A DNA stretch of 64,000 bases from a virus (IMGVR_UViG_3300025288_000013:46223-110222); one strand, 5' to 3'. Numbered from the stretch's first letter, positions 1,552 through 62,329 are shown. A program made the numbers and translations. Notes: generated by a model from the sequence alone, not told the origin.

Positions 1552-1580
1552 TGTAACAAAAGTTAATATTGTGGGTTTTT
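1552..1580 (+). promoter_or_regulatory. Class II (ECF-type) promoter TGTAAC-N17-GTTTTT
   Basis: One of 13 copies with identical spacing; intergenic, faces ORF 1615. Confidence 0.75.
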
Positions 1581-1614
1581 TATTAAATTATTATTAACTA
1601 AAACAGTAAAAATT

Positions 1615-2142
1615 ATGAAAAACATTAAATTTAACATATCATCATTGGTGATATGGACCAGGTTTCTTTGGCTAATACCATACAAAAAAGAAACAAAAAC
1701 TTGTATTGATTCCATAACAATTGATGGTGTCGATAAAACAGCTGAAGATGGAATAAGAAGTATTGATGAAGCACTTGCAGATTGGTCTTCAATAAATCAA
1801 TCTGTTAATAGGGAATTATCACAAGCCAAAGATATATGTAATAAGCTATCAAATCACATAGCCATAAAATCATGTGACCCAATACTACCAAGTTTCAGAT
1901 CTCTTGTTGCAGAATTATTTGTCGCACAAACCATTAGAGAGTTTGAAAAAGGAACAAAAATTGGTGAAAATTTGAAAACCTTTATGTCACTAAACCGAAT
2001 TGATACCAATAAAAACCTGGACATTTCTGTTTATGAAGATATTTGGGCAATAACCAAGAAAAAATTACATGTTTTTCATAGAAACGTTTATTGTTTCAAG
2101 ATGATAATGGATGATAAAATGTTTACCATAACTTTCAAGTGA
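1615..2142 (+). CDS. Hypothetical protein
   Basis: 175-aa ORF, own promoter motif. Confidence 0.75.
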   Translation: MKNIKFNISSLVIWTRFLWLIPYKKETKTCIDSITIDGVDKTAEDGIRSIDEALADWSSINQSVNRELSQAKDICNKLSNHIAIKSCDPILPSFRSLVAELFVAQTIREFEKGTKIGENLKTFMSLNRIDTNKNLDISVYEDIWAITKKKLHVFHRNVYCFKMIMDDKMFTITFK

Positions 2143-2744
2143 TAATTATTGTGGACGACAGAAAAGACATAAATTATAAAACGGTTGAACTATTTGATGA
2201 TAGTTCAACCGTTTTTATAAATAAGAATGTTGTGTCCTCTGAATACCTATCATCTGATGAAATCCAAAAATACCAAGACAACGAATTATTTGAAAGCATA
2301 GTAAAAACGTTTTACAAAATAAATCACAAAATAAATCCAAAATATAGAACTTGTATTGATTCTATTTTAACAGATGCTTATTTAGTTAACACACCAATTT
2401 CTTACGACAATTGTAACGACTATAAAATTTTGTACAGAAGAGATAATACGTGCATAATATCAAATGGAAAAAATGTCTTAGAGGTTAATATCAACAACAT
2501 TAGTATAGAACATGGCAATATAGGTTCAGAAGTTATATCATATATTTTTTCAGAGATTTACAAAATTTTAAAAAACGACATAAATGATTATACAAAATTT
2601 TTCATTTATTTTTCAGACATTTTTAACATAGAATACAAAGATTTGTATGACAATGTGTCATATAAACATAGAACAACCATAGAATCAACCATAAAAAACA
2701 AATTCAAGTATTTGTTTTCAAACACAGATGCAGCAATGTGGTAA
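2139..2744 (+). CDS. Hypothetical protein
   Basis: 201-aa ORF, GTGA overlap with upstream stop. Confidence 0.7.
   Translation: MIIIVDDRKDINYKTVELFDDSSTVFINKNVVSSEYLSSDEIQKYQDNELFESIVKTFYKINHKINPKYRTCIDSILTDAYLVNTPISYDNCNDYKILYRRDNTCIISNGKNVLEVNINNISIEHGNIGSEVISYIFSEIYKILKNDINDYTKFFIYFSDIFNIEYKDLYDNVSYKHRTTIESTIKNKFKYLFSNTDAAMW
2178..2215 (+). terminator. 16-bp perfect hairpin with T tract (intragenic terminator/attenuator)
   Basis: aaaacggttgaactat-ttgatg-atagttcaaccgtttt. Confidence 0.55.
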
Positions 2745-2747
2745 AGC

Positions 2748-2764
2748 TTGGCACGATTTTTGCT
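2748..2764 (+). promoter_or_regulatory. Class I sigma54-type (-24/-12) promoter
   Basis: TTGGCACGATTTTTGCT matches YTGGCACG-N4-TTGCW; about 50 bp upstream of the sigma-like gene. Confidence 0.8.
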
Positions 2765-2783
2765 GTGTTATAGTATGAATTTA

Positions 2784-2815
2784 AAACTTAACTTAAACTT
2801 AACTTAAACTTAAAC
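2784..2815 (+). repeat. AAACTTAACTT tandem repeat in the 5' leader
   Basis: About 2.5 copies immediately before ATG 2816. Confidence 0.6.
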
Positions 2816-3898
2816 ATGGAACAAGAAAAAATTTATGTGAACAATTTCACAAAACTATCACAAAATTATTTTGAATCAAGATCACAAAAAGATTTTGCCA
2901 AAATTTATGCAGAAATAAGAATAATAGCCATGTCTGCAGCTAAAGGGCTAACAGTAGATTCACATGATTACGAAAGTATAGTTGACGATATTTCTATGAA
3001 GCTTTATTTGAACTTTGATAAATATTATCAAGAAAATAAAAGTCTTTTATCTTTTGTCTTTGTTTCATGTAAACGAAAGTATTATACACTCAAGAAGACA
3101 TACAACAAAAGTATTTGTGAATCAGACATGATAATAATAAATGACAAAGACGGTGGAGAAACATCAAAATTTAATCAGGCTTTGACAAATTATTATGGCG
3201 ATTTTGTTGACCAAGAAAATGTGGAGGTTGATGCAGCCGATAACATGTTGCATTTATCGACAGATAGACAGATAGACAGAGTTAAAGAAATTGTTAAAGA
3301 AATGTGCTATAACGATAAAGGTGAGTTTAATGAAGACGAACATACCAAAATGATAGATATTCTTACACTAAGAAACGGCGAGTTTTCTCTTGGTGAAAAT
3401 TTGGAAGAGTTAATACCATATATAAAAAATGAAGAAGTTGGAAGCGTGTCAGACTTTATTAGTCCAACCATAATTTCTAATAAATATGGTATAAAGAACA
3501 GAGCAACTGTGTCGGCAAAAAGAACAAGAGCCATAGAAAAAATAAGAAACATAATTTTGTCTGATATATCAAATTCAGAGATTTTTGACAAAGTAAATTA
3601 TACAGGGACAAAAATTGTTAAAAAAGACATAAATGGCAAAATATACACACACACATATGAACTCATAGATGGTGTTGCAAATGGGGAATACAAAAAAGAA
3701 ATTTTGATTAATTCAAAGAAAACAACTCTAACAATAGGAAAATTTGAAAATGGTAAAAAAATAGGCATATGGCATCATTTTTTTGTTGAAAACGGATCTT
3801 ATATGGGATATGTAGATTATAATAGTGGTAAAAGTTTTGAATATACTGATATGGACGAAACAAGTATGGAAACACGTATAATGAAATTGTCTGTGTAA
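2816..3898 (+). CDS. Sigma70/ECF-like sigma factor with C-terminal MORN-like extension
   Basis: Region 2-like (DYESIVDDISMKLYLNFDKY..SLLSFVF), region 4 HTH-like (IISNKYGIKNRATVSAKRTRAIEKIR); C-terminal GKFENGKKIGIW-type repeats. Confidence 0.7.
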   Translation: MEQEKIYVNNFTKLSQNYFESRSQKDFAKIYAEIRIIAMSAAKGLTVDSHDYESIVDDISMKLYLNFDKYYQENKSLLSFVFVSCKRKYYTLKKTYNKSICESDMIIINDKDGGETSKFNQALTNYYGDFVDQENVEVDAADNMLHLSTDRQIDRVKEIVKEMCYNDKGEFNEDEHTKMIDILTLRNGEFSLGENLEELIPYIKNEEVGSVSDFISPTIISNKYGIKNRATVSAKRTRAIEKIRNIILSDISNSEIFDKVNYTGTKIVKKDINGKIYTHTYELIDGVANGEYKKEILINSKKTTLTIGKFENGKKIGIWHHFFVENGSYMGYVDYNSGKSFEYTDMDETSMETRIMKLSV

Positions 3899-3899
3899 T

Positions 3900-4547
3900 A
3901 TGAAGTATAACGAATTTTATGACGCTATTTTTTCTGTTGGTGAGAATCTTATTGTTAAGGCAGATTGCTCAAACAGTTGTTTTAAGCAATCTTCTGACTA
4001 TGTTACCATAATAGATATTTTTATAGATAATGGTATCATATGTTTCCATGTTGAATGTGAGGGAGAAGTGTTGCAAGATACTGATATGTGTCTGGAAACA
4101 AATGGCGTGTTTGATATAACAGCTGATGACATATTGAGTGTAGAAACCAACCAATATACAACAAAATACCTTAGCGATCTTGTTGATAGCAACAATGTTA
4201 TAAACATTGATTTGGTTGATATATCTGATATTACATTGACATCAATTATAGATATAAAAATGGATGTGGATATTGAGATAAAGAACTTGTCTGAATTAAT
4301 AAATAAAACCATAAACAACATAACATATTTGTCAAATAATTTGTTGTTTAATTTTACTGAAAAACAAATTATGATTTTGAACAAAAATGGAACCAATTAT
4401 TATGGTTATGATGAATTGGTTGGCGTGCCAGAATCATGTGAACCATGTGACCACATGGTTTTATATAATAAACTTAAACAACAAAAATCTTATTTAAGAT
4501 CATTAAAAACAATAAAAACAATAATTAAAAACAACAAAAATGGATAA
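3900..4547 (+). CDS. Hypothetical protein
   Basis: 215-aa ORF in operon. Confidence 0.7.
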   Translation: MKYNEFYDAIFSVGENLIVKADCSNSCFKQSSDYVTIIDIFIDNGIICFHVECEGEVLQDTDMCLETNGVFDITADDILSVETNQYTTKYLSDLVDSNNVINIDLVDISDITLTSIIDIKMDVDIEIKNLSELINKTINNITYLSNNLLFNFTEKQIMILNKNGTNYYGYDELVGVPESCEPCDHMVLYNKLKQQKSYLRSLKTIKTIIKNNKNG

Positions 4548-5031
4548 AGTTAAAAAAAGAGATTTAAGCAACATTAAACAAAAATTAAACAAGGCAAACT
4601 CAATAGAGTGCACGAAATTAGCATTAGCTTTGATGGAAAACCACAAAATAATTGATAAAGAACTCAATAAGTTATCACATCAAGTAACTTCTAATAGTTT
4701 GACTGAAAAAACAGAAGGATATGAACAAATTGTTGAATTTGAAGAACAAATGAGAGGATCATATCCAACATTTTGCAAAGAGGTTCCAGGTGGTGGATTG
4801 CAACTTGTTGATAAAGATGGCTGGACAAAAAAACTTGAAGAGTTAAAAGAAAAATACCCTTTGGGTAGAAAATTTTTTGATGAGAATGAAATCAGAATAA
4901 ATGGTATACTTGAAGAAGAAGTTGAACTTAATTTTAAAAAATTAAACATAAATTCTATACCAGATTTGAGTTTGGACATGATTAATACAATAAGTTTCAT
5001 GTTTAGTGTAAACCTTGTTAAATTAAGTTAA
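4540..5031 (+). CDS. Hypothetical phage protein
   Basis: 163-aa helical ORF overlapping upstream stop. Confidence 0.7.
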   Translation: MDKVKKRDLSNIKQKLNKANSIECTKLALALMENHKIIDKELNKLSHQVTSNSLTEKTEGYEQIVEFEEQMRGSYPTFCKEVPGGGLQLVDKDGWTKKLEELKEKYPLGRKFFDENEIRINGILEEEVELNFKKLNINSIPDLSLDMINTISFMFSVNLVKLS

Positions 5032-5063
5032 TCGTATCATCATAAAGGACATATAATAAAAAT

Positions 5064-5519
5064 GTGTCCTTTTATCACACTAATATGAACAATAATAATT
5101 ATAATTACAATTTATCAAAGATAATGGATTCTTTGATTGAAGATTATAAAGACAACAAAATCAACAAATCTTTAATAGATAACTGTGTAATCTCATCAAT
5201 AATAAGAAGTATTGGATATTATAACTCTGATTGGTATCAAAAATTGGATTTGTATAGAAACAAAATGTGTGACAACATATCAAATTTTTATGGTACCGGT
5301 ATGACATTGGAACAAATTGATAAAATAGAGAGAGTGTTTATGTCAAAATACGTGAACAATAAATTGGCTACATTAGAAGCAAATTTTAGGGCGACATTAT
5401 CTTTGGTTTCTTATTGTAAGGGTCTTAGGGGCAGCATGATTGAAAATGAAATAAATAAAAGAATGAATCCACCAAATGTCAATAAAAAATTTCAAACCAA
5501 TACGAAACAGTCCATATAA
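5064..5519 (+). CDS. Hypothetical protein
   Basis: 151-aa ORF; start uncertain. Confidence 0.6.
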   Translation: MSFYHTNMNNNNYNYNLSKIMDSLIEDYKDNKINKSLIDNCVISSIIRSIGYYNSDWYQKLDLYRNKMCDNISNFYGTGMTLEQIDKIERVFMSKYVNNKLATLEANFRATLSLVSYCKGLRGSMIENEINKRMNPPNVNKKFQTNTKQSI

Positions 5520-13986: not shown

Positions 13987-15066
13987 TTACTGTCTTTCAC
14001 CATTTACATAAGATTCAACAGTGTTATCAGAATCATAAAAATCATCTAATTTATAATGTCCGTTTTTAGTTTTATTTATGTGTTGAATAACACCACCCTC
14101 TTTGGTTGTTATTTCTATGGCTTCTTTTCTAACTTCGTCCAAATTGTTATTGTCTGATTCGTTCATTTTTATCAGTTCGTTCAACGGTTCATAATCTTCA
14201 GCATAATCACCCATAAAATCTTTCTTAAACAATACAGATAAGAATGCTCTCATATCCCCCTCATTATCGGTGCACCAACTATCATTTTTGCTTATTATTT
14301 TTAACGCTCTATCTGTGTACTTTTTATCATATGTTGAACTAACAAAATTTTTGAAAGCATCTTTGTCCTTTTTGTTGTCTAAACAATACCACCCAGCATT
14401 TTGTTTTATTGACCTTAATAATGAATCAACAAAATTGCTATCGTTTTCCAACAAATCTTCATATTTTTCACCAGAACCCTTTGATTTGTCTGTTTGATTT
14501 GATGGATCGTTACCAAATGATGCTTCACCTCTGCCTGGAACAGTTGAAGTGGCTGATTCTGATTCAACCATTTTGGTAATATCTTTCAATTTATTAATAT
14601 CTGATTCTGTTAATTTTATCCCTCTGTTAATTTTGTTACCAATACTATCATTCTCAAGAATTTTACCAATTGCATTTTTAAAATTCGTTTCATATTTTTT
14701 CCTTAATCTCATTGACACAGGTTTATATGATTCTTTTAATTCAACCAATGCCTTTTTGGCTTCATCACCAGTTTTACCAATCAATTCTTCAGTTCCATCA
14801 AGTTCCATTTCTTCAAATAATGAAACCTTATCAGATAGTTTTGATACGTCATCAAGCATTTGAAGAAAATCATCTGTTGATTTACCATCATAATCTTCAC
14901 CAAATAGATCAAAATCTTTATTATCACGTGCAAACACATTCAGCTTTCCATTAAAATTTTCAAGCATTTCATAGGTAATATCTTTTTCACTAAATACTTT
15001 ACCTCTCACATTGTTTAGTGTGAATAGTTTTGCTAATTCTTCTTTTGTTATTGATTTTGGTGTCAT
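13987..15066 (-). CDS. Acidic putative internal head protein
   Basis: 359 aa with several L-x-E-S/N motifs (LKES, LTES, LLEN). Confidence 0.6.
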   Translation of the reverse strand: MTPKSITKEELAKLFTLNNVRGKVFSEKDITYEMLENFNGKLNVFARDNKDFDLFGEDYDGKSTDDFLQMLDDVSKLSDKVSLFEEMELDGTEELIGKTGDEAKKALVELKESYKPVSMRLRKKYETNFKNAIGKILENDSIGNKINRGIKLTESDINKLKDITKMVESESATSTVPGRGEASFGNDPSNQTDKSKGSGEKYEDLLENDSNFVDSLLRSIKQNAGWYCLDNKKDKDAFKNFVSSTYDKKYTDRALKIISKNDSWCTDNEGDMRAFLSVLFKKDFMGDYAEDYEPLNELIKMNESDNNNLDEVRKEAIEITTKEGGVIQHINKTKNGHYKLDDFYDSDNTVESYVNGERQ

Positions 15067-15083: not shown

Positions 15084-15112
15084 ATAAACTTTTAAATTTG
15101 GTTTTTGTTACA
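15084..15112 (-). promoter_or_regulatory. Class II promoter TGTAAC-N17-GTTTAT
   Basis: Intergenic, 18 bp upstream of ATG 15066. Confidence 0.75.
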
Positions 15113-18328: not shown

Positions 18329-19267
18329 TTATTTATTGTTGTCCTCTTCAACTTCATCAAATTCTCCATCATCTATATCTTGTTTCATTTTCCTCAACTC
18401 TTTCATCAATTCTTTTCTACTTGATGTGCTTATTATTGTACCATCATCGATTTCATCAAATTTTTCTTCACTTTTTATCTCCTTTTGTCTTTCTTTTACT
18501 CTTTTGAAATCATCCGTTATTTCCTTTATGAGTATTGATTGATATTTATTAACGTCTAACACTATTCTTTGTATTGTTGCTAATGCCTCTATATCTTTTG
18601 TTGTTGATGAACCTATATAAATTTTTTTTGATATATCATGTATGGCTTTTTTACTAACATCTATTTGAAAAATCAAAGTAGATAAACTATTTTCTTCAAG
18701 TTGCATCTTGAATTTTATATAATCATTTTTTTCTATAAACTCACTACCTAAATAATAATCTGCTATGTTCATCAATAAACCTTTTGCTATTGTTGCACAT
18801 CTTGTAGCTTTTTCCTCAAATTCATCCTCAAATTCTTTTATCTGTTGCTCAAGGTCTTCATCCTCAAACTCTCCAAGTTCACCCATATCAATTTTAGCCA
18901 AACTTTCAAGTGTCATGGTTTGTCTTGATTCAACCGCTTCAGCTTTCTTTTTGATCTCCTCTAAGTCACTTTTCCCCATTGATTTTGTGTATTTTTCCAT
19001 TGTTTTTATTGTGTGGAAAAATGCTTCGTCAATGGTTTTACCGTTTTCACTTATTATTGGTAATTTTATGAGTTGTATTGTTTTGCCTCTAAGTGATTTA
19101 AATCTTATAGCTTCATCTTTTGTAGAAAAAATGATTCTATATAGTGTTTTTTTATCATCTTTTATAGAAATGTTAAAGTATTCTTGTTTTGGTAATCTGT
19201 ATGGATCAGTAACAGAAAGATTTCCTCTTTCAACTTCTATTTGTTCATGATTACCTGCTATTCTCAT
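18329..19267 (-). CDS. Hypothetical coiled-coil protein
   Basis: 312-aa ORF coupled to the WYL gene. Confidence 0.7.
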   Translation of the reverse strand: MRIAGNHEQIEVERGNLSVTDPYRLPKQEYFNISIKDDKKTLYRIIFSTKDEAIRFKSLRGKTIQLIKLPIISENGKTIDEAFFHTIKTMEKYTKSMGKSDLEEIKKKAEAVESRQTMTLESLAKIDMGELGEFEDEDLEQQIKEFEDEFEEKATRCATIAKGLLMNIADYYLGSEFIEKNDYIKFKMQLEENSLSTLIFQIDVSKKAIHDISKKIYIGSSTTKDIEALATIQRIVLDVNKYQSILIKEITDDFKRVKERQKEIKSEEKFDEIDDGTIISTSSRKELMKELRKMKQDIDDGEFDEVEEDNNK

Positions 19268-19833
19268 TAGTAATTTATTTTAGGATTTTCACCTTTTGGA
19301 AATTCGTTATGATCCAATGATGTTATAATAGTTCCCATTTGTGAATCGCTTGGATTATATTGTCTTCTATATTTACTGAACTTCTTTTTCATGTTTGTCA
19401 TAGATTCTATACCATCAAGTCTGAACAATCTCCATCGGTTTCTTTTATCTGATACAGATACAGATTTTCTTCTTGTGAATCTTGTTTTTATTTGTTCATC
19501 TTTACTGCTATCCATAATAACAAACGCTCTTATGTAATATCTGTCATTGTGTAAAACTTTATTACCCATTCTATAGCCTCTACCAATCGCATATGGTTCT
19601 AATAGTCTATGACCTTTACCACCATCCCTATCCTCATAATAAACTGATATGTATTCTCTGTTCTTTATTGCATTTGATATTTCATTTATACCAACATTTG
19701 TTCTTTCTACTCTTGGTACACCACGTTCTGTTAAAGGTATATATATGGATTTTATGAGTTCATATTCTTCTTCTGATAAATCTATGTCATTTACGCCAAA
19801 GTGGAAGTTGAATGGTTTGTATATCTTAAACAT
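19267..19833 (-). CDS. WYL domain protein
   Basis: Y......R.LEPYA.G, YYIRAF, WRLFRLDGI; ATG start chosen downstream of the promoter. Confidence 0.8.
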   Translation of the reverse strand: MFKIYKPFNFHFGVNDIDLSEEEYELIKSIYIPLTERGVPRVERTNVGINEISNAIKNREYISVYYEDRDGGKGHRLLEPYAIGRGYRMGNKVLHNDRYYIRAFVIMDSSKDEQIKTRFTRRKSVSVSDKRNRWRLFRLDGIESMTNMKKKFSKYRRQYNPSDSQMGTIITSLDHNEFPKGENPKINY

Positions 19834-19842: not shown

Positions 19843-19871
19843 ATAAACCAACAGATTTGGTTATTGTTACA
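19843..19871 (-). promoter_or_regulatory. Class II promoter TGTAAC-N17-GTTTAT
   Basis: Conserved spacing; upstream of the WYL gene. Confidence 0.75.
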
Positions 19872-21393: not shown

Positions 21394-22053
21394 TTATTCG
21401 TATTTAATGTTTCTAAAATAACCATTCATTTCTTCAAAGCTTCTAATACCATCAGTTGTTGCAAGTTCAACAGCCATAGCAAAAATTTCCATGACTGCTA
21501 TGGTTTTGTGGTAATTAGTTTTGTGATAAGTACCAGACAAAACCATATTTATTCTGTTATACACAGCTTTCAGAGTGTCATCATGCCACTTATCAAACAT
21601 TTTTAATGTGTGATAGCACTGATCATTTGACAAACCTTTTTTCCTAAATGTTTCCAAAGCTTTTCTATTACATTCTATTGTTGTTTTTGTAACCAAAGAT
21701 CTCATAATATTTGCATAATCAGATTTTGAACACGTCAATGTTTTTTTGTCATTTATAATTTGTATAATTTGCTCACCTATTTCTGTTAATTTTATTTTTA
21801 TGAAATCTTTGAAAATTTGCGTTTTGGCTTCATCATTTTCAAAAGTTATTTTATGTATGTCGTCAGCAAGAATTTTGTTGATTGTTGTAAATAAATCGTG
21901 ATTTTTTAATTGTTCCCTGGTACCCATTATACCAATCAATAACATAAAGTTTATTTTGTCCTTAAAAATATAAGATAAACTTACAAGTACTAATAATATT
22001 AATGTTACTATTGGTGACAAACCTTTTACTAATGTTTCTATTAACTTCTCCAT
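21394..22053 (-). CDS. Membrane protein of the lysis cassette
   Basis: Single N-terminal TM helix plus soluble domain. Confidence 0.55.
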   Translation of the reverse strand: MEKLIETLVKGLSPIVTLILLVLVSLSYIFKDKINFMLLIGIMGTREQLKNHDLFTTINKILADDIHKITFENDEAKTQIFKDFIKIKLTEIGEQIIQIINDKKTLTCSKSDYANIMRSLVTKTTIECNRKALETFRKKGLSNDQCYHTLKMFDKWHDDTLKAVYNRINMVLSGTYHKTNYHKTIAVMEIFAMAVELATTDGIRSFEEMNGYFRNIKYE

Positions 22054-33251: not shown

Positions 33252-33893
33252 TTATAAATATTTGTCAACCAATTCTAAAAATGCCTCATTGAATCCATTG
33301 GGAGTTTTATCACGTTCAGTTTTTGATCCAGCAATACCACATTTCATACCAAAATCAAGCATTTCTTCTCTTGTGAAATTTTGTTTTATGAATTTTATAT
33401 CAATGTCACCATTTTCTTTTGGTCTGAAATATTTTATTCCACCAATAGGTAATTTAGCAAACGCTTCATCAATTATAACCTTTGAACTAAATTTGGATTC
33501 ATCATTCTCATACAATTCATTAAATTTACAGACAAATTCAATTATGAAATCTATCGGTATTAACATTGTACCAAACAAATCCTTATCGGTTGTAGCAATA
33601 ATTTTGTGTATAGAATTACTCAAATTACTTTTGTTAATGATTCTTCTTGAAAAGGTTTCATAATTACCAAAATTATTTTTTAAAAAACTACCACCATCAT
33701 CTATTTCGACAGGTTTTGTTGATAAAATGTGCATATGAAATGGAACACAGTTTTCAACATTGCTGAATTTATCGACATTCAGCAAATCATTAAAAAGTAC
33801 CCCATCGCCATAATTGTCCCTCCACACAATAGAAGATTGATTTTTAGTATTTTCAATTGGAATTAATAGTATTTTAACTTTCTCGTTGCACAT
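33252..33893 (-). CDS. Hypothetical protein (paralog family A)
   Basis: HMHI, KIIATTDKDL; start set downstream of the promoter. Confidence 0.75.
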   Translation of the reverse strand: MCNEKVKILLIPIENTKNQSSIVWRDNYGDGVLFNDLLNVDKFSNVENCVPFHMHILSTKPVEIDDGGSFLKNNFGNYETFSRRIINKSNLSNSIHKIIATTDKDLFGTMLIPIDFIIEFVCKFNELYENDESKFSSKVIIDEAFAKLPIGGIKYFRPKENGDIDIKFIKQNFTREEMLDFGMKCGIAGSKTERDKTPNGFNEAFLELVDKYL

Positions 33894-33910: not shown

Positions 33911-33939
33911 AAAAACTTTTATCAGTTCTATTTGTTACA
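33911..33939 (-). promoter_or_regulatory. Class II promoter TGTAAC-N17-GTTTTT
   Basis: Conserved spacing. Confidence 0.7.
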
Positions 33940-38634: not shown

Positions 38635-38808
38635 TTAAATGTCTATGTCATTCAATATTTCCTCATAAGAATCCTTAAACAAATTATCAATTGTTGATAG
38701 GTCTTTCATGGTTTCAATGATTTCTCTAAGTCTTACCCCTGAAGTCTTTGGGTTATCAAACTCACTTCTAAGTGAATCAATGATACTTTTTATAGTTGTC
38801 TTTTTCAT
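38635..38808 (-). CDS. 57-aa protein
   Basis: MKKTTIKSIIDSLRSEF..; ATGA overlap. Confidence 0.6.
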   Translation of the reverse strand: MKKTTIKSIIDSLRSEFDNPKTSGVRLREIIETMKDLSTIDNLFKDSYEEILNDIDI

Positions 38809-39032
38809 ACCAATCTTTCCTCCATATGTTCTTTTAGACGTTCATTAAGTGTCATTAATAAATTGTTTGATAATTCACAAACACCGAACATACTTTCGAA
38901 GTTTCTTATCATTCTGTTTGATACCAATAAATGCATGTAATCATTTTTCTTATTGTTTATGATGCTTAGTATTCTTTGGAAATGATCGTTTTTTGTTTTA
39001 TTGATGTTTCTTGTTGGTATTGCTGATAACAT
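38805..39032 (-). CDS. Hypothetical protein
   Basis: 75 aa after class II promoter. Confidence 0.65.
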   Translation of the reverse strand: MLSAIPTRNINKTKNDHFQRILSIINNKKNDYMHLLVSNRMIRNFESMFGVCELSNNLLMTLNERLKEHMEERLV

Positions 39033-39068: not shown

Positions 39069-39097
39069 ATAAACTGCCATATATTTAGGTTGTTACA
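39069..39097 (-). promoter_or_regulatory. Class II promoter TGTAAC-N17-GTTTAT
   Basis: Conserved spacing, intergenic. Confidence 0.75.
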
Positions 39098-43254: not shown

Positions 43255-43710
43255 TTAAATACCAAGACAACATTTTTTGAATTTTTTGCCAGAACCACAA
43301 ATACATGTTTCATTTCTACCAACCTTTTTTTCGGTTCTTATTGATTCAATTGTTTGTAATAATTGTTTGTTTGTCAAGGGCGGATAGTGTTCAAGATGTT
43401 GATTCTCAAATTTGTACTCAATTATTTCTTTTTCCCATTCATTGATACTTTTTGTCTTTGGAGCAATATCATCTTTTGTTACCAATTTATCAGATAAAAC
43501 GAAACCCTTTTCCTCAAGAAGTTTCTTTACTTCATCAGTCACATCACTTTGTAACAAGAATAATTCTTTACCGTTTGTGTCAACGTATACCCTTATATCT
43601 TGTTCAATTGTTGCCGCATTTAAAGTAGTCTTTCCATGACTAACTGTACCAATGTTTTTGTGTGCAATTTCTCGTGAATCACCAACGATTGCAATAGTTT
43701 TCTTACTCAT
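43255..43710 (-). CDS. SEC-C motif protein with EF-Tu-like N-terminal motif
   Basis: KVGRNETCICGSGKKFKKCC; HKNIGTVSHGKTTLNAA. Confidence 0.8.
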   Translation of the reverse strand: MSKKTIAIVGDSREIAHKNIGTVSHGKTTLNAATIEQDIRVYVDTNGKELFLLQSDVTDEVKKLLEEKGFVLSDKLVTKDDIAPKTKSINEWEKEIIEYKFENQHLEHYPPLTNKQLLQTIESIRTEKKVGRNETCICGSGKKFKKCCLGI

Positions 43711-43816
43711 AATATGTGTTAAATATAAATTGTAAAGCGTAATATAAAATATGATATGCACAGAAAACGCCAAAAATAAGTGCCAAAAGTATTACATATT
43801 TCATTTTTAATTTCAT
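43703..43816 (-). CDS. 37-aa hydrophobic peptide
   Basis: MKLKMKYVILLALIFGVF.. Confidence 0.45.
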   Translation of the reverse strand: MKLKMKYVILLALIFGVFCAYHILYYALQFIFNTYYE

Positions 43817-43821: not shown

Positions 43822-43850
43822 ATCAACTTTTATAATTGTTGTTGGTTACA
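43822..43850 (-). promoter_or_regulatory. Class II promoter variant TGTAAC-N17-GTTGAT
   Basis: Same spacing, at a gene boundary. Confidence 0.5.
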
Positions 43851-45537: not shown

Positions 45538-45852
45538 TTAAAATAATTTTGGTTGTTCCATTGATTTTATTAGCTCTATTAAAATGTCACCATGACACGA
45601 TTTTGGTTTGCACCAACAACCAAGTGTTTTATCCTTTAATTCATGTAAATCGTTCAACAAATGCTTACCATCACCATTGGTTATATATAAACGATAAGAT
45701 TCAATGGCTTCTTTCCTACTATTAACCATAAATTTTGCCAATGTGGCAGAATCTTTCTTATGTGTGAAAGGATTTCCCCACTTACTTGGTCTACCAATAT
45801 AAACATCATATTCATCGGTTTTACAATTAACAACAAGAGTTTTATTCGCCAT
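45538..45852 (-). CDS. DUF4326 family protein
   Basis: VYIGRPSKWGNPF ... LGCWCKP..CHGD.L. Confidence 0.85.
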   Translation of the reverse strand: MANKTLVVNCKTDEYDVYIGRPSKWGNPFTHKKDSATLAKFMVNSRKEAIESYRLYITNGDGKHLLNDLHELKDKTLGCWCKPKSCHGDILIELIKSMEQPKLF

Positions 45853-45956
45853 TGTTTTAGTTATTATTTTCATTAGAAATAAGGTCAAAGAATTTAGGTA
45901 GACACCATAATTATTTTTACCTTTCCTAGAATTCCTCAATTCAAGGTTTATGATTT

Positions 45957-45985
45957 ATAAACCATAACAAAACAGATTTGTTACA
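45957..45985 (-). promoter_or_regulatory. Class II promoter TGTAAC-N17-GTTTAT
   Basis: Heads a leftward operon at a divergence point. Confidence 0.75.
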
Positions 45986-47572: not shown

Positions 47573-47884
47573 TTATTTTTTGCTCCATATTTTACTTGGT
47601 CTAACATCTATTAACAATTCTCCGAAATGTAATTTCATATGGTTTGTTAAAGACGTAAGTTTTCTGTTGTCTTTACCAATCATAATTGATGGTTTATGAC
47701 TTGTTATTTTTATAACAACTTTAGATTTCTTTTTATAAACTTTGACAGACGTAACATATTGATAAGCCAATAAGTCATTTTTTTCCCAAAAATTCATTAA
47801 TTCAACTCTTATTTGTGCTGAATCAATACTATTAGATTTCCATGTTTTGATGAATGATTTAATTGAACGTTTTAACCTTTCCAT
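47573..47884 (-). CDS. Type II KH-domain protein resembling the uS3 N-domain
   Basis: VVIKITSHKPSIMIGKDNRKLTSL vs uS3 I.I...RPG.VIGK.G..I..L. Confidence 0.55.
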   Translation of the reverse strand: MERLKRSIKSFIKTWKSNSIDSAQIRVELMNFWEKNDLLAYQYVTSVKVYKKKSKVVIKITSHKPSIMIGKDNRKLTSLTNHMKLHFGELLIDVRPSKIWSKK

Positions 47885-47917
47885 GTTTTAATAAATGTAG
47901 TTTAATCTTTTAATTTT

Positions 47918-47958
47918 ATTGAAACGAACAAAAATTGGGCAATTTTGTTCGTTTCAAT
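47918..47958. terminator. Long near-perfect hairpin
   Basis: attgaaacgaacaaaa/ttttgttcgtttcaat. Confidence 0.65.
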
Positions 47959-48081
47959 TGGCTGTCGCACTATTTTAGTTCTATAAGCACATGATACGCT
48001 ATGTTTATACTAAATTTCAAGTTTGCTACAAGTAAATTATCTTTGTATCAAGACAAAATACCAACTATCAATTCGTGTATT

Positions 48082-48110
48082 ATAAACTATCCATATCTAT
48101 TGTTGTTACA
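48082..48110 (-). promoter_or_regulatory. Class II promoter TGTAAC-N17-GTTTAT
   Basis: In non-coding region. Confidence 0.7.
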
Positions 48111-48344
48111 GCATATCTAACATATAAGGTAATAATTTGATTATAAAAATAGCACAATCAAAACAAGGGTCAAATTGTTTTGAAAATAATAAAACACCAA
48201 AATCAAATTTGTGATTGCTTTTGAAATAATGCCATGATGTATGTGAGTTATTTTTTTTATTTTTATGTCGCCTATTTTATAGGGTTGCATTTGTGACAGT
48301 TCTATATGATTAGAAAGATTCTGCCTTTCTTGAGTGTTTTTTAC

Positions 48345-48373
48345 TAAAACCAACAATATTTGATTTTGTTACA
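48345..48373 (-). promoter_or_regulatory. Class II promoter TGTAAC-N17-GTTTTA
   Basis: In non-coding region. Confidence 0.6.
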
Positions 48374-48388
48374 ATACCATTTTACCAA

Positions 48389-48430
48389 ATCTTCAGTTTT
48401 GTATGAATTTTTGAATATAAAACTGAAGAT
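48389..48430. terminator. Hairpin, 12-bp perfect arms
   Basis: atcttcagtttt/aaaactgaagat. Confidence 0.5.
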
Positions 48431-48741
48431 ATAAGAACAATATTTAAAGTTATTATATTAAATTATTGTCAGTTTTATAAGCATGATACAACATTGTAAC
48501 ACATTTATAACAAATCTTTGAGTTTTGTTTAAGATTATTGAATTGCATTTTACTGTATCAATACACATTTATAATTAAGCACAATATATGTCCCTTTTAT
48601 TGATTTTGTGTTATAGACACTAACATAGCAGAAATATGGTATTAAAATAATGGTAATATAGAGGAGTTTGTGGGAGATATGTCTGACTAATTTGAGTATG
48701 GGTGTATACAGATATGTTTAAGAACATATTGTTAATACAAT

Positions 48742-49089
48742 CTATTTATTATTTTGGTGAAACTTTGATATAACCGATATATTATCTTTTCCATAAAGTT
48801 CTTCCATAAAACATTTAACATTATCATTTTTACACTGATCAGCAACATATTCAACAAACAATCTGAAATCGTTCTTTGCTAATGCCAATCCAGCTGATAG
48901 ACCGACTATATCTATGTGTTTTGAAATGGATGTTATGGCTTCAATAACCTTTATGTTTTTAACAACCTCATCAATTTGTGATATAGTCATTAATTGTCTT
49001 TGTGAATTTGGAAATTCTCTAAGCGATTTGTCATATAATTTCATTTTTTCTAACTCCAATTCTTCAAGATTTTTTGATATGTGTGCCAT
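48742..49089 (-). CDS. Hypothetical protein
   Basis: 115 aa after class I promoter. Confidence 0.7.
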   Translation of the reverse strand: MAHISKNLEELELEKMKLYDKSLREFPNSQRQLMTISQIDEVVKNIKVIEAITSISKHIDIVGLSAGLALAKNDFRLFVEYVADQCKNDNVKCFMEELYGKDNISVISKFHQNNK

Positions 49090-56904: not shown

Positions 56905-57078
56905 TTAGTTTTTACAAAATGTTAGTTTTATCATAACAACACTATCAGATGAAGTTATTTGTTTTCTTAAAGTTTCGAATTTAGTTGTGTTATCACTAAA
57001 TCTTGACACAGTTGCAACTCTTTCGTTGTTATGTGCCATTGAACTATTTCGTCTTATACGTTTTATCTTGATTTCCAT
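56905..57078 (-). CDS. 57-aa protein
   Basis: Follows class II promoter; coupled to further small ORFs. Confidence 0.5.
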   Translation of the reverse strand: MEIKIKRIRRNSSMAHNNERVATVSRFSDNTTKFETLRKQITSSDSVVMIKLTFCKN

Positions 57079-57091: not shown

Positions 57092-58105
57092 TTACCATAA
57101 ACCACAATGTTTATGTGTTGTTACTTTTATATTGCTGTCTGACATGCCAGACAATAAAAAACTTATTAATTTTACGGTCCATCCGTTTCCTATCATTTCT
57201 CTTCTTCTTGTATCGCTAACAGCCTTTGTGTAGTTGTCTGGTACAGTTTGGATTCTTTCATGTTCTATGGGAGTTAAATTTCTGGCTTTTATTTTTTCAT
57301 ATAGTTCTTTTGTTAAGACCAGATCACAAACATTTTTATCAAACAAATGCCTATATTCTTCATTTATTATGTTTGGTATGCTTGTTCCACTCTGACCAGC
57401 CATAAGCGTTCTCGATTTTTGGTTTCTGTGCAATGGTATTCTTGACATAAATTTTGATTTCATGTTGCCCTCGACACCAGCCATAGTTTTGTAATATTTT
57501 TTGTCAACTTCTTTTTCTAAAATGTCTTCCAGAACCAAATCGCATGTTTGTTCTTCCAAACCATAAATGGGCATGTTGGTCCAGTACAATCTTTTTCTGT
57601 TTTGTGGTGAGAATCTATTACTGTTTATCATGACTGGCTGAACGCCAATTGTTTTAGTTATGATGTCTTTCCATTTTTTTGGCATCATAACATTTTCCAA
57701 CAAAAAGTATTTTGGCTTCTTTGTCTTTATTATGTGCACGTACTCCCAAAAAAGATATGACATACCATTAAACACACAACCATTATTCTTCATTCTAATA
57801 TACTCTTCGTATGATTCTCCTATAAGACCATTAAAATTACCATCGTTTATAGAATTTTGGAATGACAAATTTGTGCAAGGACTTCCACCCATAAACAAGT
57901 CTATGTTGTCTATGTTGTCTAGATTCACATGCCTAATGTCACCAAGTTGTATTGTGTTTGGATAATTATCTTGTGTTACTTTTATTGAGTATGGATTTAT
58001 TTCTATTGCATAGTAATTTTCATACTCAATATTTTGGTCATTTAGTGCTATTTGTCCACAACTCATACCATCAAAAGCACTAACAACATTTTTTAATTTT
58101 ATCAT
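57092..58105 (-). CDS. dcm: DNA (cytosine-5)-methyltransferase
   Basis: S.FDG.SCG, GGSPC, LLENV, QNRKRLYW, GNGW. Confidence 0.93.
   Translation of the reverse strand: MIKLKNVVSAFDGMSCGQIALNDQNIEYENYYAIEINPYSIKVTQDNYPNTIQLGDIRHVNLDNIDNIDLFMGGSPCTNLSFQNSINDGNFNGLIGESYEEYIRMKNNGCVFNGMSYLFWEYVHIIKTKKPKYFLLENVMMPKKWKDIITKTIGVQPVMINSNRFSPQNRKRLYWTNMPIYGLEEQTCDLVLEDILEKEVDKKYYKTMAGVEGNMKSKFMSRIPLHRNQKSRTLMAGQSGTSIPNIINEEYRHLFDKNVCDLVLTKELYEKIKARNLTPIEHERIQTVPDNYTKAVSDTRRREMIGNGWTVKLISFLLSGMSDSNIKVTTHKHCGLW
57097..57125 (-). promoter_or_regulatory. Class II promoter variant AGTAAC-N17-GTTTAT (direct-repeat copy)
   Basis: 27/28 identical to 58123-58150. Confidence 0.6.
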
Positions 58106-58122
58106 AAATCGTCCTTTTAATG

Positions 58123-58151
58123 ATAAACTACAATGTTTATGTGTTGTTACA
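58123..58151 (-). promoter_or_regulatory. Class II promoter TGTAAC-N17-GTTTAT
   Basis: 18 bp upstream of the MTase ATG. Confidence 0.75.
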
Positions 58152-58163
58152 ACCATTATTTAA

Positions 58164-58192
58164 TGTAACAAAAATATGTGTTCTTTGTTTTT
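58164..58192 (+). promoter_or_regulatory. Class II promoter TGTAAC-N17-GTTTTT
   Basis: Back-to-back with the previous copy; heads the recombination operon. Confidence 0.75.
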
Positions 58193-58213
58193 ATTGAAAC
58201 CAATTCATTAGAC

Positions 58214-58858
58214 ATGTACGATATAAAAACATTAACAGAAGAAGAAATAAAAGAAGTCATATTATTAAAAAAATGTGATGATATGGTGGAAAGGTTTTTG
58301 TTGGTTTTACCGTATGTCATGAAAGATGGTTCAAAGTATAGTTTGGACAAAAACATACTAACCATAACAAAACTTGGTGAAACCATAACATTAAGAGTAT
58401 CATTTGGTAAAAAATATGTATTGTTAACAAACGGTACAAGAAAAATACAAATAGTTTATGGTAGCAAAACCAATACAGAAAGTAGTCTTGCTGATAGAAT
58501 CATAAAATTAATAGAACCCATAATAAAAAAGAAGCAGGAAGATTGGTTAACATTCTCAAGTAAAGTAAAATGTGATCATGTTGCCGATACCATATCTGAT
58601 AAATTAAAATCACCTGTATCAAAATCAAAAGTTAAAGGTGTTGACAAATATTATTATAGAATAAAAACCAAAGAATTTGAATCCTTGCACATATCAAGTA
58701 ATGCAAAATCTATAACAAATGTTAGATTTAATGACAAATTAACATCATTCAAAGATATGACATCTAAGAACATTTTTGAAAAATATGAAGTTGCAAAGGA
58801 TGAACTTGATAATAGATTCAATAAAATGCATGATATACTTAAAAAATTGGAAAAATGA
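58214..58858 (+). CDS. Hypothetical protein (paralog family C domain)
   Basis: SFG..Y..KIQIVYGSKTNT. Confidence 0.75.
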   Translation: MYDIKTLTEEEIKEVILLKKCDDMVERFLLVLPYVMKDGSKYSLDKNILTITKLGETITLRVSFGKKYVLLTNGTRKIQIVYGSKTNTESSLADRIIKLIEPIIKKKQEDWLTFSSKVKCDHVADTISDKLKSPVSKSKVKGVDKYYYRIKTKEFESLHISSNAKSITNVRFNDKLTSFKDMTSKNIFEKYEVAKDELDNRFNKMHDILKKLEK

Positions 58859-59865
58859 AAGAGAAAATAATTATTGTTGGTGATATCCATTTAGGAAAAG
58901 AATCAAATGGCGACATATCGTTATTTGAAACATTTGTGGAAAAAATTTTGTTGCCTGAATGTGATAAAGATACAGTGGTTATATTCACTGGCGATCAATT
59001 TGAGGGTAGTTATATAAATATAATACTTTTAAACAAAGTTATAAATGTTTTTAACAAGATCAATGAATCCGTTAAATTTTGTCATTTTCTTGTTGGTAAT
59101 CATGATTCATATAAACTTGATAATGTTGGTGAAAACATGTCATCAATTTTCAATTTGTGGGACAACTTTCAGGTGTGGTACGATGATAAAGTTATTATAA
59201 ATGATAAGTCATTCCATTTCCTTTCCTTTTCTCTTGATATAACAAAAATCAGAAAATCAATAGAAGATTCTGATTCAAATTATTTAATTATACACGAAGA
59301 GATATCAGAGTTTTTCTATGATAAATTTAGACCAATAAACGGTGGTATTGGTTTGTCGGAGTTAGAAAAATTTGAATTGGTATTTGATGGTCATATACAC
59401 AGAAAACAAACAAAAGGTAATTGTTGGATAGTTGGCACACCATATCAAATGAAGTATTCTGATTCTGGTAATCTATGCGGTATGCATATACTTGATACAG
59501 AAACAAATGGGGTGAGATTTGTCGAAAACACACATTATCCAAAATATCACAAATTAACTTATAAAGAAATAACAGATGAAAATTTTGATACAAATCTTAT
59601 AAGTGGTAACAAAGTATGGGTTACAGATATAGAGGACGAAGAAATTGTGAAAAAACTTACTATGTCTGTTGTTGAACTTAGAACAAACATAAAAGGAACG
59701 GACACAATTGTTACAGAAAATTTTACCTATGATCACGAAGAGGATATAATAAGAAATACGGGTGATTATTTGAAAGAACTTAAAGAAGTACCAATATCAA
59801 ACAAGGTTTTGGGAATGAACCCAACTCTTAAGAAAGACATACTTGATAACATAAACAAACTATAA
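58855..59865 (+). CDS. Recombination endonuclease subunit (gp47/SbcD/Mre11)
   Basis: GDIHLG, GD.F, VGNHD, GHIH, GTPYQ. Confidence 0.92.
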   Translation: MKEKIIIVGDIHLGKESNGDISLFETFVEKILLPECDKDTVVIFTGDQFEGSYINIILLNKVINVFNKINESVKFCHFLVGNHDSYKLDNVGENMSSIFNLWDNFQVWYDDKVIINDKSFHFLSFSLDITKIRKSIEDSDSNYLIIHEEISEFFYDKFRPINGGIGLSELEKFELVFDGHIHRKQTKGNCWIVGTPYQMKYSDSGNLCGMHILDTETNGVRFVENTHYPKYHKLTYKEITDENFDTNLISGNKVWVTDIEDEEIVKKLTMSVVELRTNIKGTDTIVTENFTYDHEEDIIRNTGDYLKELKEVPISNKVLGMNPTLKKDILDNINKL

Positions 59866-59866
59866 C

Positions 59867-62305
59867 ATGAAATTAAACAGTCTAAAAATAAAAAACATAC
59901 TAAGCTTTGGTGGGGACAAGGAAATTTGTGTTGATTTTTCCAAAATTGGTATGGGTTTGATAATAGGTGACAACGGCTTTGGCAAGAGTAACTTCACACG
60001 AATAATAAAAATGGTGTTATACTTTGATTATCCAAGCAAGATAGAAAAAGTTGTTAATGATAGAAAAGTTAGTGGTGAAATAACTTGTGAGGTTGAATCA
60101 AAAGGAAACATTTATAGATTGGAGTATGTGTTAACAAATAAAAAGATAAAGTCTGTTTTGGTTTATAAAAACAATAAAACAACTCCAGAGGACACAGGTA
60201 CGTTGGCTTCAACAAAAGATTTTATATTGAATGAAATTGTTGATATTCCAAAAGATGTGTTTTATAATGTTTTTACACCAAGCATAGACACATTCAAATC
60301 ATTTATTGGTATGTCTGTTGATGATAGCAGAAAAATCCGTGATGAACTATTCTCTTTGTCTGATATAAATAAGTATAACGAATTGACCAAGACAAAACTT
60401 AACAAACTTATATCAGATGAAACATTGATTAAGAATAACATTGATATTAACAAAGAATCGATTGATGAATTAAAAGAATCGATTGAAAAAACAAAGAAAG
60501 AAATTGATAAGGACAGGGAGGATAAATTGAAACTTGTAAATAAAGAGATAGAATCTTTAGAAAAACAATTGGTTGATAATGATAGATTAAAAGAATCATA
60601 TAAAAAATTGATTGATGCTGTAAATGAAAATATTGACTATAACACAAAGTTATCAAATAGAGAGAAGTTGTCTTTGTTAAAAAAAGAAAAAGAACAATTG
60701 ATAAAGATAGTAGATTCATTGAAGCTTGATAAAACAAATAAAACAGCTGATCTAAAATCTGTTGAAAATTATGAATTCAAATTAATTTTTGAAGAATCAG
60801 AGGCAAGACTTGTTGTGATTAATAAAAAGATAAATTTGTTGAAAGAGGACATCCTGGAAATGGAGCAAAAAAATGAAAAGTACAAAAAATGGGAAAAAAT
60901 CAATGAATTTATAGATTTAGATAATAAAAAGAAAGAAATTGAAAAAGAAATTGAAAACTTTAAAAGGGTTGGAGAAAATATAAATAAAAAACTTAATGGA
61001 AAGGATGTGGTTTATCAAGAAACCAAAAGTGAATTATTACAACTCAAGAAAGAAATTGAAATAATGTTACTTGGTGAAAAATGTCCGACTTGTGAAAGTG
61101 AATTATCATTTTCACAAGAGCAAATATCCACCAAAAAAGACATATACAACATAAAGGTTTCAGAATTTAACAAATTCAAGGAAGAATTTAAAAAACTTGT
61201 TGCAGATAATGTAACTAATGCAGAAGCTTTAAATAATAATGATAAAAAGTTGTCAAATCTATTAAAGGATATAGAATTGCTCGGCGAAATTTCAACTGAA
61301 CCAATATCAGGTGTTATAACTAAGGAAGAGCATATGTCCAATTTAAAACTGATAGTCAACAATAAAACTGATATAGAATCATTGTTTAGGGAAAAAACCG
61401 CCAAAGAAGTTTGGGTTGATAAATACAAAGAATTCAAGAATTCTGTAAAACCTGAATTTCAAAGATACCAAATTGAAGCAAAAATAACTGAAATCGATAA
61501 ATCCGTAGAAGAAAATGTTGGTAAAGTTGGTTCTATAAATAATGATATAAAAAAATATGAAGATTCGCTTGAGGGTTTTATTGAAAAATTTAATATACCA
61601 AATAAAAATGATTGCTTGAAAAAATTGGACATATTGCTCAAAAAAATGGGCGAAATCAATAAAGAAATTGATGAATTGTACGATACAAAAAACAACAAAC
61701 TTGGAATCAAAGAAAATTTGGAATCAAAGAAGACAGATAATGTTCTTAAAACTATGGAGGAACACCTTAATAAATCAACCAATAAAATCAATGAAGAAGA
61801 AGAAAAATTGATACCGTTGAAAAAACAGATAGAAATTCATGAAGCTATGAAATTTATATTTTCTGAAAGTGGTATGAAACGATGGTTGCTAAACAAAATA
61901 AGAGTTGGATTTTCATCGAACATAAATAGGGATTTAGACGTTTTTGGTCTATCAGTTTCTTTTGACGAAAATTTTGTTATATCAATTTTTAAAAATAAGA
62001 GAGATTTGGATCAAAAACTTATGAGTGTTGGTCAAAGGAAGATAATAGACACAATAATTTGCTTGAACTTTATTGAACTTTATATAAATAAAATAAAAGA
62101 TATGAATTTTTGCATTCTTGATGAATGTTTGTCTAATTTATCAAAAAGAAATTCAGAATTATTGGTTGAAATTATAAAAAACAAATTGATACCGAAAAAC
62201 TTTAATGTTATGTTAACCAATCACGCACCAATATCAAATCAAATGTTTGATTTTAACATAATGCTTGAGAACAAATTTGAATACACAGAAGTAAAATATG
62301 TGTAA
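59867..62305 (+). CDS. Recombination ATPase (gp46/SbcC/Rad50)
   Basis: GDNGFGKS, coiled coil with CPTC hook, MSVGQ, ILDE, H-loop. Confidence 0.93.
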   Translation: MKLNSLKIKNILSFGGDKEICVDFSKIGMGLIIGDNGFGKSNFTRIIKMVLYFDYPSKIEKVVNDRKVSGEITCEVESKGNIYRLEYVLTNKKIKSVLVYKNNKTTPEDTGTLASTKDFILNEIVDIPKDVFYNVFTPSIDTFKSFIGMSVDDSRKIRDELFSLSDINKYNELTKTKLNKLISDETLIKNNIDINKESIDELKESIEKTKKEIDKDREDKLKLVNKEIESLEKQLVDNDRLKESYKKLIDAVNENIDYNTKLSNREKLSLLKKEKEQLIKIVDSLKLDKTNKTADLKSVENYEFKLIFEESEARLVVINKKINLLKEDILEMEQKNEKYKKWEKINEFIDLDNKKKEIEKEIENFKRVGENINKKLNGKDVVYQETKSELLQLKKEIEIMLLGEKCPTCESELSFSQEQISTKKDIYNIKVSEFNKFKEEFKKLVADNVTNAEALNNNDKKLSNLLKDIELLGEISTEPISGVITKEEHMSNLKLIVNNKTDIESLFREKTAKEVWVDKYKEFKNSVKPEFQRYQIEAKITEIDKSVEENVGKVGSINNDIKKYEDSLEGFIEKFNIPNKNDCLKKLDILLKKMGEINKEIDELYDTKNNKLGIKENLESKKTDNVLKTMEEHLNKSTNKINEEEEKLIPLKKQIEIHEAMKFIFSESGMKRWLLNKIRVGFSSNINRDLDVFGLSVSFDENFVISIFKNKRDLDQKLMSVGQRKIIDTIICLNFIELYINKIKDMNFCILDECLSNLSKRNSELLVEIIKNKLIPKNFNVMLTNHAPISNQMFDFNIMLENKFEYTEVKYV

Positions 62306-62329
62306 CATTGATTAAAATGGAAAGTTTAT
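62301..62329 (+). promoter_or_regulatory. Class II promoter TGTAAC-N17-GTTTAT
   Basis: Conserved spacing at a gene boundary. Confidence 0.7.

Follow-up and report, generated by a model that had tools for sequence, protein, structure and literature searches.

Middle promoters of phage T4 contain a MotA box and are read by sigma-70 that has been remodelled by AsiA. As MotA and AsiA are missing from most T4-like phages of non-enterobacterial groups, little is known of how these phages pass from early genes to replication genes. In phage phiEco32, gp36 (with gp79) is a distant relative of sigma-70 whose N-terminal domain is sigma2-like and whose C-terminal domain is sigma4-like; once the early phase is over, it redirects the host core RNA polymerase to the promoters of the phage (PMC12276001). 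In Bacillus phage SPO1, the host sigma acts early and is followed by phage sigmas, namely gp28 for the middle and gp33/34 for the late genes (PMC13401047). Among the promoters of cellular extracytoplasmic function (ECF) sigma factors, that of Bacillus subtilis SigX is given as tgtAACnww / CGwCww (cited in PMC8024623), and that of Acinetobacter baumannii SigAb comprises GTCAAC, a 17-bp spacer and CGTT (PMC12153292). Here, we analyzed a 64,000-nucleotide (nt) stretch of viral DNA, hereafter the window (bases 46223-110222 of the 110,222-bp IMG/VR contig IMGVR_UViG_3300025288_000013; coordinates are those of the window unless stated otherwise), with respect to a repeated two-box element, TGTAAC-N17-GTTTWT, which we term P2. 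P2 is probably a genuine middle promoter class of the ECF (group 4 sigma-70) type that is read by a sigma factor of the phage itself.

P2 shares with the cellular ECF promoters an AAC-containing -35 box, a rigid spacer of 16-17 nt and a short xGT(T) -10 box, and its TGTAAC is identical to the SigX box. Unlike the cellular promoters, the -10 box of P2 is RGTTTAT (CATTWWT in the related Flavobacterium phage MaF61), the -35 box is extended to TGTAACAA, and the approximately 27 copies on the phage genome would drive replication genes, not an envelope-stress regulon. As in the case of phiEco32 gp36, a phage-encoded two-domain sigma is proposed, here from sequence and a structural model. However, the promoters of gp36 are mainly AATGTA centred at -11.5 and serve both middle and late genes, whereas P2 is a strict two-box element accompanied by a separate late box, and the putative sigma bears a C-terminal MORN tail and has no known gp79-like partner. 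As in SPO1, the host sigma would serve the early genes and phage sigma(s) the later classes, but the phage lineage and the sigma families are unrelated and the late step here looks T4-like (an ATAAATA box and a gp55-like open reading frame [ORF]). P2 would occupy the same place in the programme as the T4 middle promoters and shares many target functions with them (gp43, gp32, gp46/47 and gp55). In contrast to the latter, there is no MotA box, the genes for MotA and AsiA were not found in the three genomes searched, and a dedicated sigma would take the place of sigma appropriation. The T4 late promoter, a single TATAAATA-like -10 box without a -35 box, differs from P2 in that the latter has two boxes.

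The preliminary description of this DNA had listed 13 copies of P2 with invariant spacing and mostly unrelated spacers, nearly all of them located at gene boundaries and facing start codons. All 13 copies are present, 10 being exact and three carrying one mismatch (GTTGAT at 43822, GTTTTA at 48345 and AGTAAC at 57097). Two further one-mismatch matches lie inside ORFs and are doubtful, i.e., 43550(+), which is antisense, and 52222(-) within a ligase gene. P2 is enriched over shuffled sequence: the window contains 10 exact copies, whereas dinucleotide shuffles predict 0.10 (none of 100 shuffles reached 10). In the entire 110-kb contig, 34 sites were found at two mismatches or fewer, approximately 27 of which lie between genes or at their edges, with a start codon 5-54 nt ahead of them; 25 sites were strict, compared with 1.35 in shuffles. 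The consensus reads TGTAACAA-N15-GTTTAT, in which the 8-mer TGTAACAA is the first box in full and G or A often precedes GTTT; TGTAAC, with its AAC core, is invariant in 25-27 sites. The spacing is as rigid as had been claimed, since the co-occurrence of the two boxes in upstream regions peaks at N17 alone (17 cases, against 0-2 at spacings of 12-22). The spacers are indeed unrelated, save for those of the pair 57097/58123. Furthermore, 17 of the 25 strict contig sites end 0-60 nt before the start of an ORF on the same strand, against a background of 3.7% (binomial p = 3e-19). Most of the other strict sites have an ATG 5-17 nt downstream that was missed by the crude gene model used for the site-to-start counts (33893, 58105, 62335 and the short ORF after 43822).

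A phage-encoded sigma factor linked to P2 is an addition of the present analysis and was absent from the preliminary description. ORF 2816-3898 on the plus strand encodes a putative ECF-like sigma factor of 360 amino acids (aa), for which sigma2, sigma4 and a C-terminal MORN-type beta domain are predicted. This ORF alone, as well as many of the neighbouring ORFs, gave no Pfam or PHROGs match. An exhaustive HMMER search recovered a family of 20 representatives, the alignment of which displays an ECF sigma2 pattern, a sigma4.2-like helix (SPE.IA..YGI.SR.TI..R..RA..KI) and C-terminal MORN repeats. The family profile matched ECF sigmas in the PDB (5uxx, 2.8e-7; SigK, 4.8e-5; RpoE, 7e-4). At the level of Pfam, Sigma70_r2 was detected in 9 and MORN_2 in 15 of the 20 members, while Sigma70_r4_2 was detected in only two (best E = 0.013). 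An AlphaFold2 (AF2) model built from the family alignment reached a predicted local distance difference test score (pLDDT) of 78.8, the single-sequence model being unusable (pLDDT of 35). Foldseek found no match to the whole alignment-based model at E <= 0.001; the domain matches below were obtained by VIA-align. Residues 7-99 of the model matched the sigma2 domains of CnrH, SigW, SigK and BldN at Z 8.9-9.7 (Z 9.2-9.7 and root mean square deviation [rmsd] 2.4-3.6 for the first three), and residues 147-252 matched region 4 of Escherichia coli sigmaE in complex with -35 DNA (2h27_D; Z 5.9, rmsd 2.6, 69 residues). The model thus contains a predicted sigma2 domain and, with moderate confidence, a sigma4 domain with a helix-turn-helix suited to the -35 box. 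Residues 259-360 matched MORN-type beta repeats; this tail, encoded at 3590-3898 and missing from the MaF61 homologue, may regulate or anchor the sigma. The ORFs downstream of the sigma gene (3900-4547 and 4540-5031) gave no significant family match, and no anti-sigma gene of the kind co-transcribed with cellular ECF sigmas was identified here.

The contig has a G+C content of 30% and a completeness of 64% (CheckV), and the runs that contain its DNA are groundwater and aquifer metagenomes. No tRNA gene was found by a tRNA scan of the contig, and Shine-Dalgarno sequences are absent at its start codons. The nearest cultured relative by PolB is MaF61 (PQ858689, 167.8 kb; identity 32%, E = 7e-110), which has 43 reciprocal-best-hit proteins in common with the contig, including the PurZ-terminase pair and the capsid, portal and baseplate proteins. 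Against GenBank phages, megablast of 20 kb and tblastn of the sigma of the window both gave no match, and tblastn of family member P0014 matched MaF61 solely. P0014 is encoded exactly by G001, a complete IMG/VR phage of the same lineage (129,295 bp with terminal repeats). No related loci were found by searches with single proteins (sigma and PolB) or with sigma alignments (one against metagenome contigs, another against viral contigs), and an exact scan of IMG/VR for TGTAAC-N17-GTTTWT gave scattered single chance matches among the matches listed. We found no published description of the P2 motif in phages or of promoters or sigma factors of Flavobacterium phages, and transcription is not a topic of the MaF61 paper.

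The relatives carry the same promoter layout with other letters. In MaF61, of which the sigma homologue is ORF93 (67707-68411), the most enriched upstream word is TGCAAC, which belongs to the motif TGCAACaa-N14-CATTwwT (TGCAAC-N16-CATTWWT) in the same register as P2; 40 copies were found against 0.3 expected in shuffles. The G001 motif, GAAAC-N17-RTTWWT, amounted to 11 copies against 2.0 expected with a peak at N17 only, and its copies precede PolB, the single-stranded DNA-binding protein (SSB), a DNA-binding protein and its own sigma gene (48 nt upstream). A fourth phage (L121-L123, one genome) has two TGCAAC-N16-CGTTTTT sites near its own sigma gene. The AAC core of the -35 box is retained in the boxes of the relatives, TGCAAC and GAAAC. 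In a spacing scan of three phages, all co-occurrences of the boxes in upstream regions were at N17, and the position-weight matrices of this phage and MaF61 found no sites in each other's genome at scores >=14. Both this phage and MaF61 have P2-type sites before their orthologues of SSB, primase, guanylate kinase (Gmk) and a 150-aa gene; for PolB, gp47 and the clamp loader, the agreement is at the level of operons. No virion gene common to the two is preceded by a P2-type site in both. Judged from these sequences, the promoter architecture is conserved in the related phages, each of which uses its own boxes. Based on the geometry, the co-occurrence and the co-variation in three to four phages, we infer that the sigma of each phage is paired with its P2-type promoters.

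The targets named in the preliminary description, i.e., gp47/gp46, the methyltransferase (MTase), a WYL protein and UvsW, were recognized as Metallophos/gp47, SbcC/gp46, a C5-MTase, a WYL-domain protein and a superfamily 2 (SF2; UvsW-like) helicase, respectively. The gp47/gp46 operon is preceded by the copy at 58164..58192 (+; GTTTTT box), behind which a 214-aa ORF is followed by gp47/SbcD (58855-59865) and gp46/SbcC (59867-62305). The exact copy at 62301..62329 (+) is followed by an ATG at 62335, 5 nt downstream, that opens a small ORF, and then by the helicase gene from 62535. The exact copy at 58123..58151 (-) has an ATG at 58105, 17 nt downstream, which is the start of the C5 cytosine DNA MTase gene (57092-58105), and the exact copy at 19843..19871 (-) has the ATG of the WYL-domain protein (19267-19833) 9 nt downstream. 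Outside the window, the targets comprise a deoxynucleoside monophosphate (dNMP) phosphatase with the clamp loader behind it, an HNH endonuclease, a gp32-like SSB, PolB, an endolysin-like protein, Gmk, a DNA-binding protein, and the primase followed by an exonuclease subunit and PurZ. Altogether, the target set is one of prereplicative or middle-type genes, mostly for replication, recombination and nucleotide metabolism. An ECF-type class for middle-type genes, as the preliminary description had it, is the best-supported reading of the promoter geometry and the gene content; the middle timing is itself deduced from the gene content and the presence of a separate late box.

The remaining copies in the window stand before genes of less certain role. 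The exact copy at 15084..15112 (-) has an ATG 17 nt downstream (ORF 13987-15066, 359 aa, the N-terminus of which resembles the MaF61 major capsid protein over a short stretch), and that at 33911..33939 (-; GTTTTT box) has an in-frame ATG at 33893, 17 nt downstream (ORF 33252-33893, 213 aa), besides an out-of-frame ATG 6 nt after the second box. The exact copy at 39069..39097 (-) lies in a block of small ORFs, 36 nt before the ATG of a 75-aa ORF (38805-39032). The copy at 43822..43850 (-) precedes the ATG of a short hydrophobic ORF by 5 nt, after which comes a SEC-C-motif protein (43255-43773). The exact copy at 45957..45985 (-) precedes a DUF4326 protein (45538-45939), whose TTG start lies 17 nt downstream. 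An ATG exactly 5 nt after the second box is shared by four copies (43822 and 62301 in the window; contig bases 24025 and 42583), and, were transcription to start 6-7 nt past the box, the mRNAs of such copies would be leaderless.

The C5-MTase gene is flanked on both sides by minus-strand copies, 57097-57125 and 58123-58151, whose spacer regions are nearly identical (28 nt with one difference), the similarity ending at the promoter edges; this bracketing suggests the insertion of a cassette or a duplication via promoter repeats. The former copy (57097..57125) is located in the final codons of the MTase gene, and its own downstream gene is a 57-aa ORF (56905-57078) with an ATG 18 nt away. The copies 58123(-) and 58164(+) lie back to back on opposite strands, 12 nt apart within 58123-58192, so that the MTase gene extends leftwards and the gp47/gp46 operon rightwards from this divergent pair. 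Two copies fall in a stretch of approximately 860 nt on the minus strand that is nearly free of ORFs (47884-48742). One of them, 48345..48373 (-), precedes a 49-aa hydrophobic ORF (48141-48290) starting 54 nt downstream. The other, the exact copy at 48082..48110 (-), has no ORF behind it; approximately 130-170 nt of non-coding DNA lead to a hairpin with a 13-bp stem near 47915-47950. This copy may drive a small RNA, and Rfam at the gathering threshold found no RNA family.

The copy at 1552..1580 (+; GTTTTT box) lies upstream of the sigma gene on the same strand, with a start codon 34 nt downstream (ORF 1615-2142, 175 aa). A perfect palindrome with a 16-bp stem and A/T runs at its flanks (2178-2215) begins 36 nt after the stop codon of this ORF. 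It looks like a bidirectional terminator and may limit read-through from this copy into the sigma gene. As the palindrome falls within a GTG-started ORF (2139-2744), the 5' end of that ORF is doubtful.

Enrichment of k-mers in the upstream regions returned three classes, namely a sigma54-consensus element, P2 and ATAAATA. The first is represented by AAAGCT-TGGCACGATTTTTGC, which fits the sigma54 -24/-12 consensus perfectly and occurs in nine identical copies (2749-2763, 37689, 38347, 38592, 40530, 49117, 49871 and 53791; contig base 22044), and precedes small ORFs, a gene for NAD-dependent DNA ligase and the sigma gene. The promoter directly before the sigma gene is the copy at 2749-2763, not P2. 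No sigma54-type site was found in MaF61, of which the sigma gene lies behind a different repeated element that occurs in 4-6 other places and has the core AAGCTTG..ACGATT in common with the sigma54-like class. Because another repeated element precedes the sigma gene in both phages, this gene is outside the P2 class in both of them; in G001, a P2-type site lies 48 nt upstream of the sigma gene. Owing to the shared core and the lack of a sigma54-type site in MaF61, an unusual sigmaA-type early promoter may be an alternative to the sigma54 reading.

The ATAAATA box resembles the T4 late promoter and lies 0-59 nt (mostly 15-40 nt) before the genes for capsid, scaffold, portal, terminase, baseplate and other large virion-type proteins (T4-late-like boxes at 5451, 8022, 13217, 13267/13283, 18330, 21106, 25263, 29840 and others). 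In upstream regions, AATAAATA was found 18 times in this phage against 1.6 expected, GATAAATA 16 times in MaF61 against 1.1, and ATAAATA 24 times in G001 against 2.3. The gp55 family of PHROGs (phrog_234) weakly matched MaF61 ORF75 (E = 0.0018; L125, 54739-55476), which is annotated as hypothetical, resembles T4 gp55 at its N-terminus and lies 45 nt behind a P2-type site; its orthologue in G001 is 3210-3929 (E = 1e-54). Neither this contig nor G001 gave a match to phrog_234, and phmmer with T4 gp55 and gp45 found nothing significant in the three proteomes. The three classes would fit a cascade in which an early promoter leads to the phage ECF-like sigma, the sigma to P2 (replication genes and a late sigma), and the latter to ATAAATA (virion genes).

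In the mechanism that we propose, the host core RNA polymerase would bind the phage-encoded ECF-like sigma (ORF 2816-3898), the sigma4 domain of which would read the TGTAAC box at about -35, while its sigma2 domain would read and open the (R)GTTTAT box at about -10. Transcription would begin roughly 6-8 nt past the second box. P2 would then drive a prereplicative or middle programme consisting of the PolB, SSB, primase and clamp-loader operons, Gmk and other nucleotide enzymes, as well as gp46/gp47, the helicase, the MTase, the WYL protein and, in MaF61, the candidate for a gp55-like late sigma. With the sigma gene expressed from a different repeated promoter and the structural genes from ATAAATA, the cascade would have three steps.

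Several observations weigh against this reading. ORF 2816-3898 alone gave a weak Sigma70_r2 match that reached none of the Pfam cut-offs (12.5 bits, the cut-off being 24), so the assignment as a sigma relies on the family profile and the fold. No RNA run containing the contig sequence was found among the public runs listed. The -10 box of P2 is RGTT (CATT in MaF61) and not the canonical CGT core; CGT appears in the second box only in the L121-L123 phage (CGTTTTT), the GT/TT part being common and the C not. The motif of G001 is looser and was defined after inspection of the data, its spacing peak being the independent part. Two targets look structural, namely the capsid-like ORF 13987-15066 and the portal gene, the latter with a one-mismatch site. 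The P2-like site before the portal gene (contig bases 32864-32892) has TTTTAT as its second box and a late ATAAATA box inside its spacer; it may act as a dual promoter or overlap the late box by chance.

The most serious challenge, although we consider it unlikely, is that the P2 promoters are genuine but depend on an ECF sigma of the host, the phage sigma acting on another class, e.g., the late ATAAATA promoters as an equivalent of gp55. Both a host ECF sigma reading the same boxes and a late-promoter role of the phage sigma could apply. The boxes of P2 are like those of cellular ECF promoters, and flavobacteria possess several ECF sigmas, seven in F. psychrophilum (PMC9723704). T4 gp55 matched the sigma2 domain of the model at Z 8.9, about as close as the ECF sigmas, and the fold alone therefore cannot separate an ECF sigma from gp55; in view of this likeness, ORF 2816-3898 could be a late sigma instead. 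The best phmmer match of T4 gp55 in the three proteomes was the MaF61 sigma homologue (E = 0.18, not significant), and a search for gp55 homologues in this contig (64% complete) found none. On the other hand, the sequence profile and the sigma4 domain do separate ORF 2816-3898 from gp55, and a sigma4 domain suits a -35 box, which T4-type late promoters lack. A separate gp55-like ORF is present in MaF61 and G001, and the three related phages each have their own box variant and their own diverged sigma with no cross-matching at scores >=14. It would presumably also be fragile to entrust approximately 27-40 promoters, including that of the polymerase gene, to a stress-induced host sigma.

Sigma appropriation in the manner of T4 MotA/AsiA, in which P2 would be a composite site for a phage activator and a host sigma, appears improbable. 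The gene content of the phage is T4-like, and T4 middle promoters likewise have two elements, one at -10 and the other upstream of it, near -30. Nevertheless, the MotA C-terminal domain and AsiA were not found in the three genomes, two of which are complete (MotCF gave an 11-bit match inside the portal gene), the second box is unlike the Bacteroidota sigmaA -7 box TAnnTTTG, and the geometry of AAC, 16-17 nt and xGT is that of ECF promoters. We regard it as decidedly improbable that P2 comprises early promoters for the unmodified holoenzyme of a host with non-canonical promoters. Host sigmaA-type promoters (TTG-N17-21-TAnnTTTG, the Bacteroidota type; TTGACA/TATAAT) were not enriched in the intergenic DNA of the contig, and the infection programme needs some starting promoter; however, 36% of the genome is missing from the contig, and the sigma54-like class precedes small early-type ORFs and the sigma gene. 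Moreover, the primary sigma (sigmaA) of Flavobacterium reads TAnnTTTG, and the ECF promoters of this genus have a CGT box (PMC9723704). As the host of MaF61 is Flavobacterium, with this known and different sigmaA consensus, the P2-type sites of MaF61 are not housekeeping promoters. That P2 is no promoter at all but, e.g., a repeat related to recombination, homing or packaging, as the MTase gene between two same-spacer copies could recall from mobile cassettes, is very hard to reconcile with the strict orientation of the sites towards start codons 5-54 nt away, the fixed spacing with variable spacers, and an architecture kept before orthologous genes while the box letters change.

P2 and its ECF-type sigma, read as a pair, offer a concrete and testable answer to the question of the early-to-replication switch for one T4-like lineage, of which MaF61 is cultured on Flavobacterium. 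The P2 motif also permits the annotation of operons and timing in a genome in which most ORFs are of unknown function. The three related phages with non-overlapping boxes constitute a small natural experiment in the co-evolution of sigma and promoter specificity, and their elements are potential orthogonal expression parts for Bacteroidota, in which standard promoters fail. We see roughly even chances that the T4-like flavophages (this phage, MaF61 and G001) have replaced MotA/AsiA by an ECF sigma of their own within a three-step cascade, and that sigma and promoters have co-evolved to mutually exclusive specificities. If true, approximately 11-40 promoters per genome would have co-evolved with a sigma that carries a C-terminal MORN domain in some members, yielding the specificities TGTAAC/GTTT, TGCAAC/CATT and GAAAC/RTT, and these phages would be a natural source of mutually orthogonal pairs of sigma and promoter for Bacteroidota.

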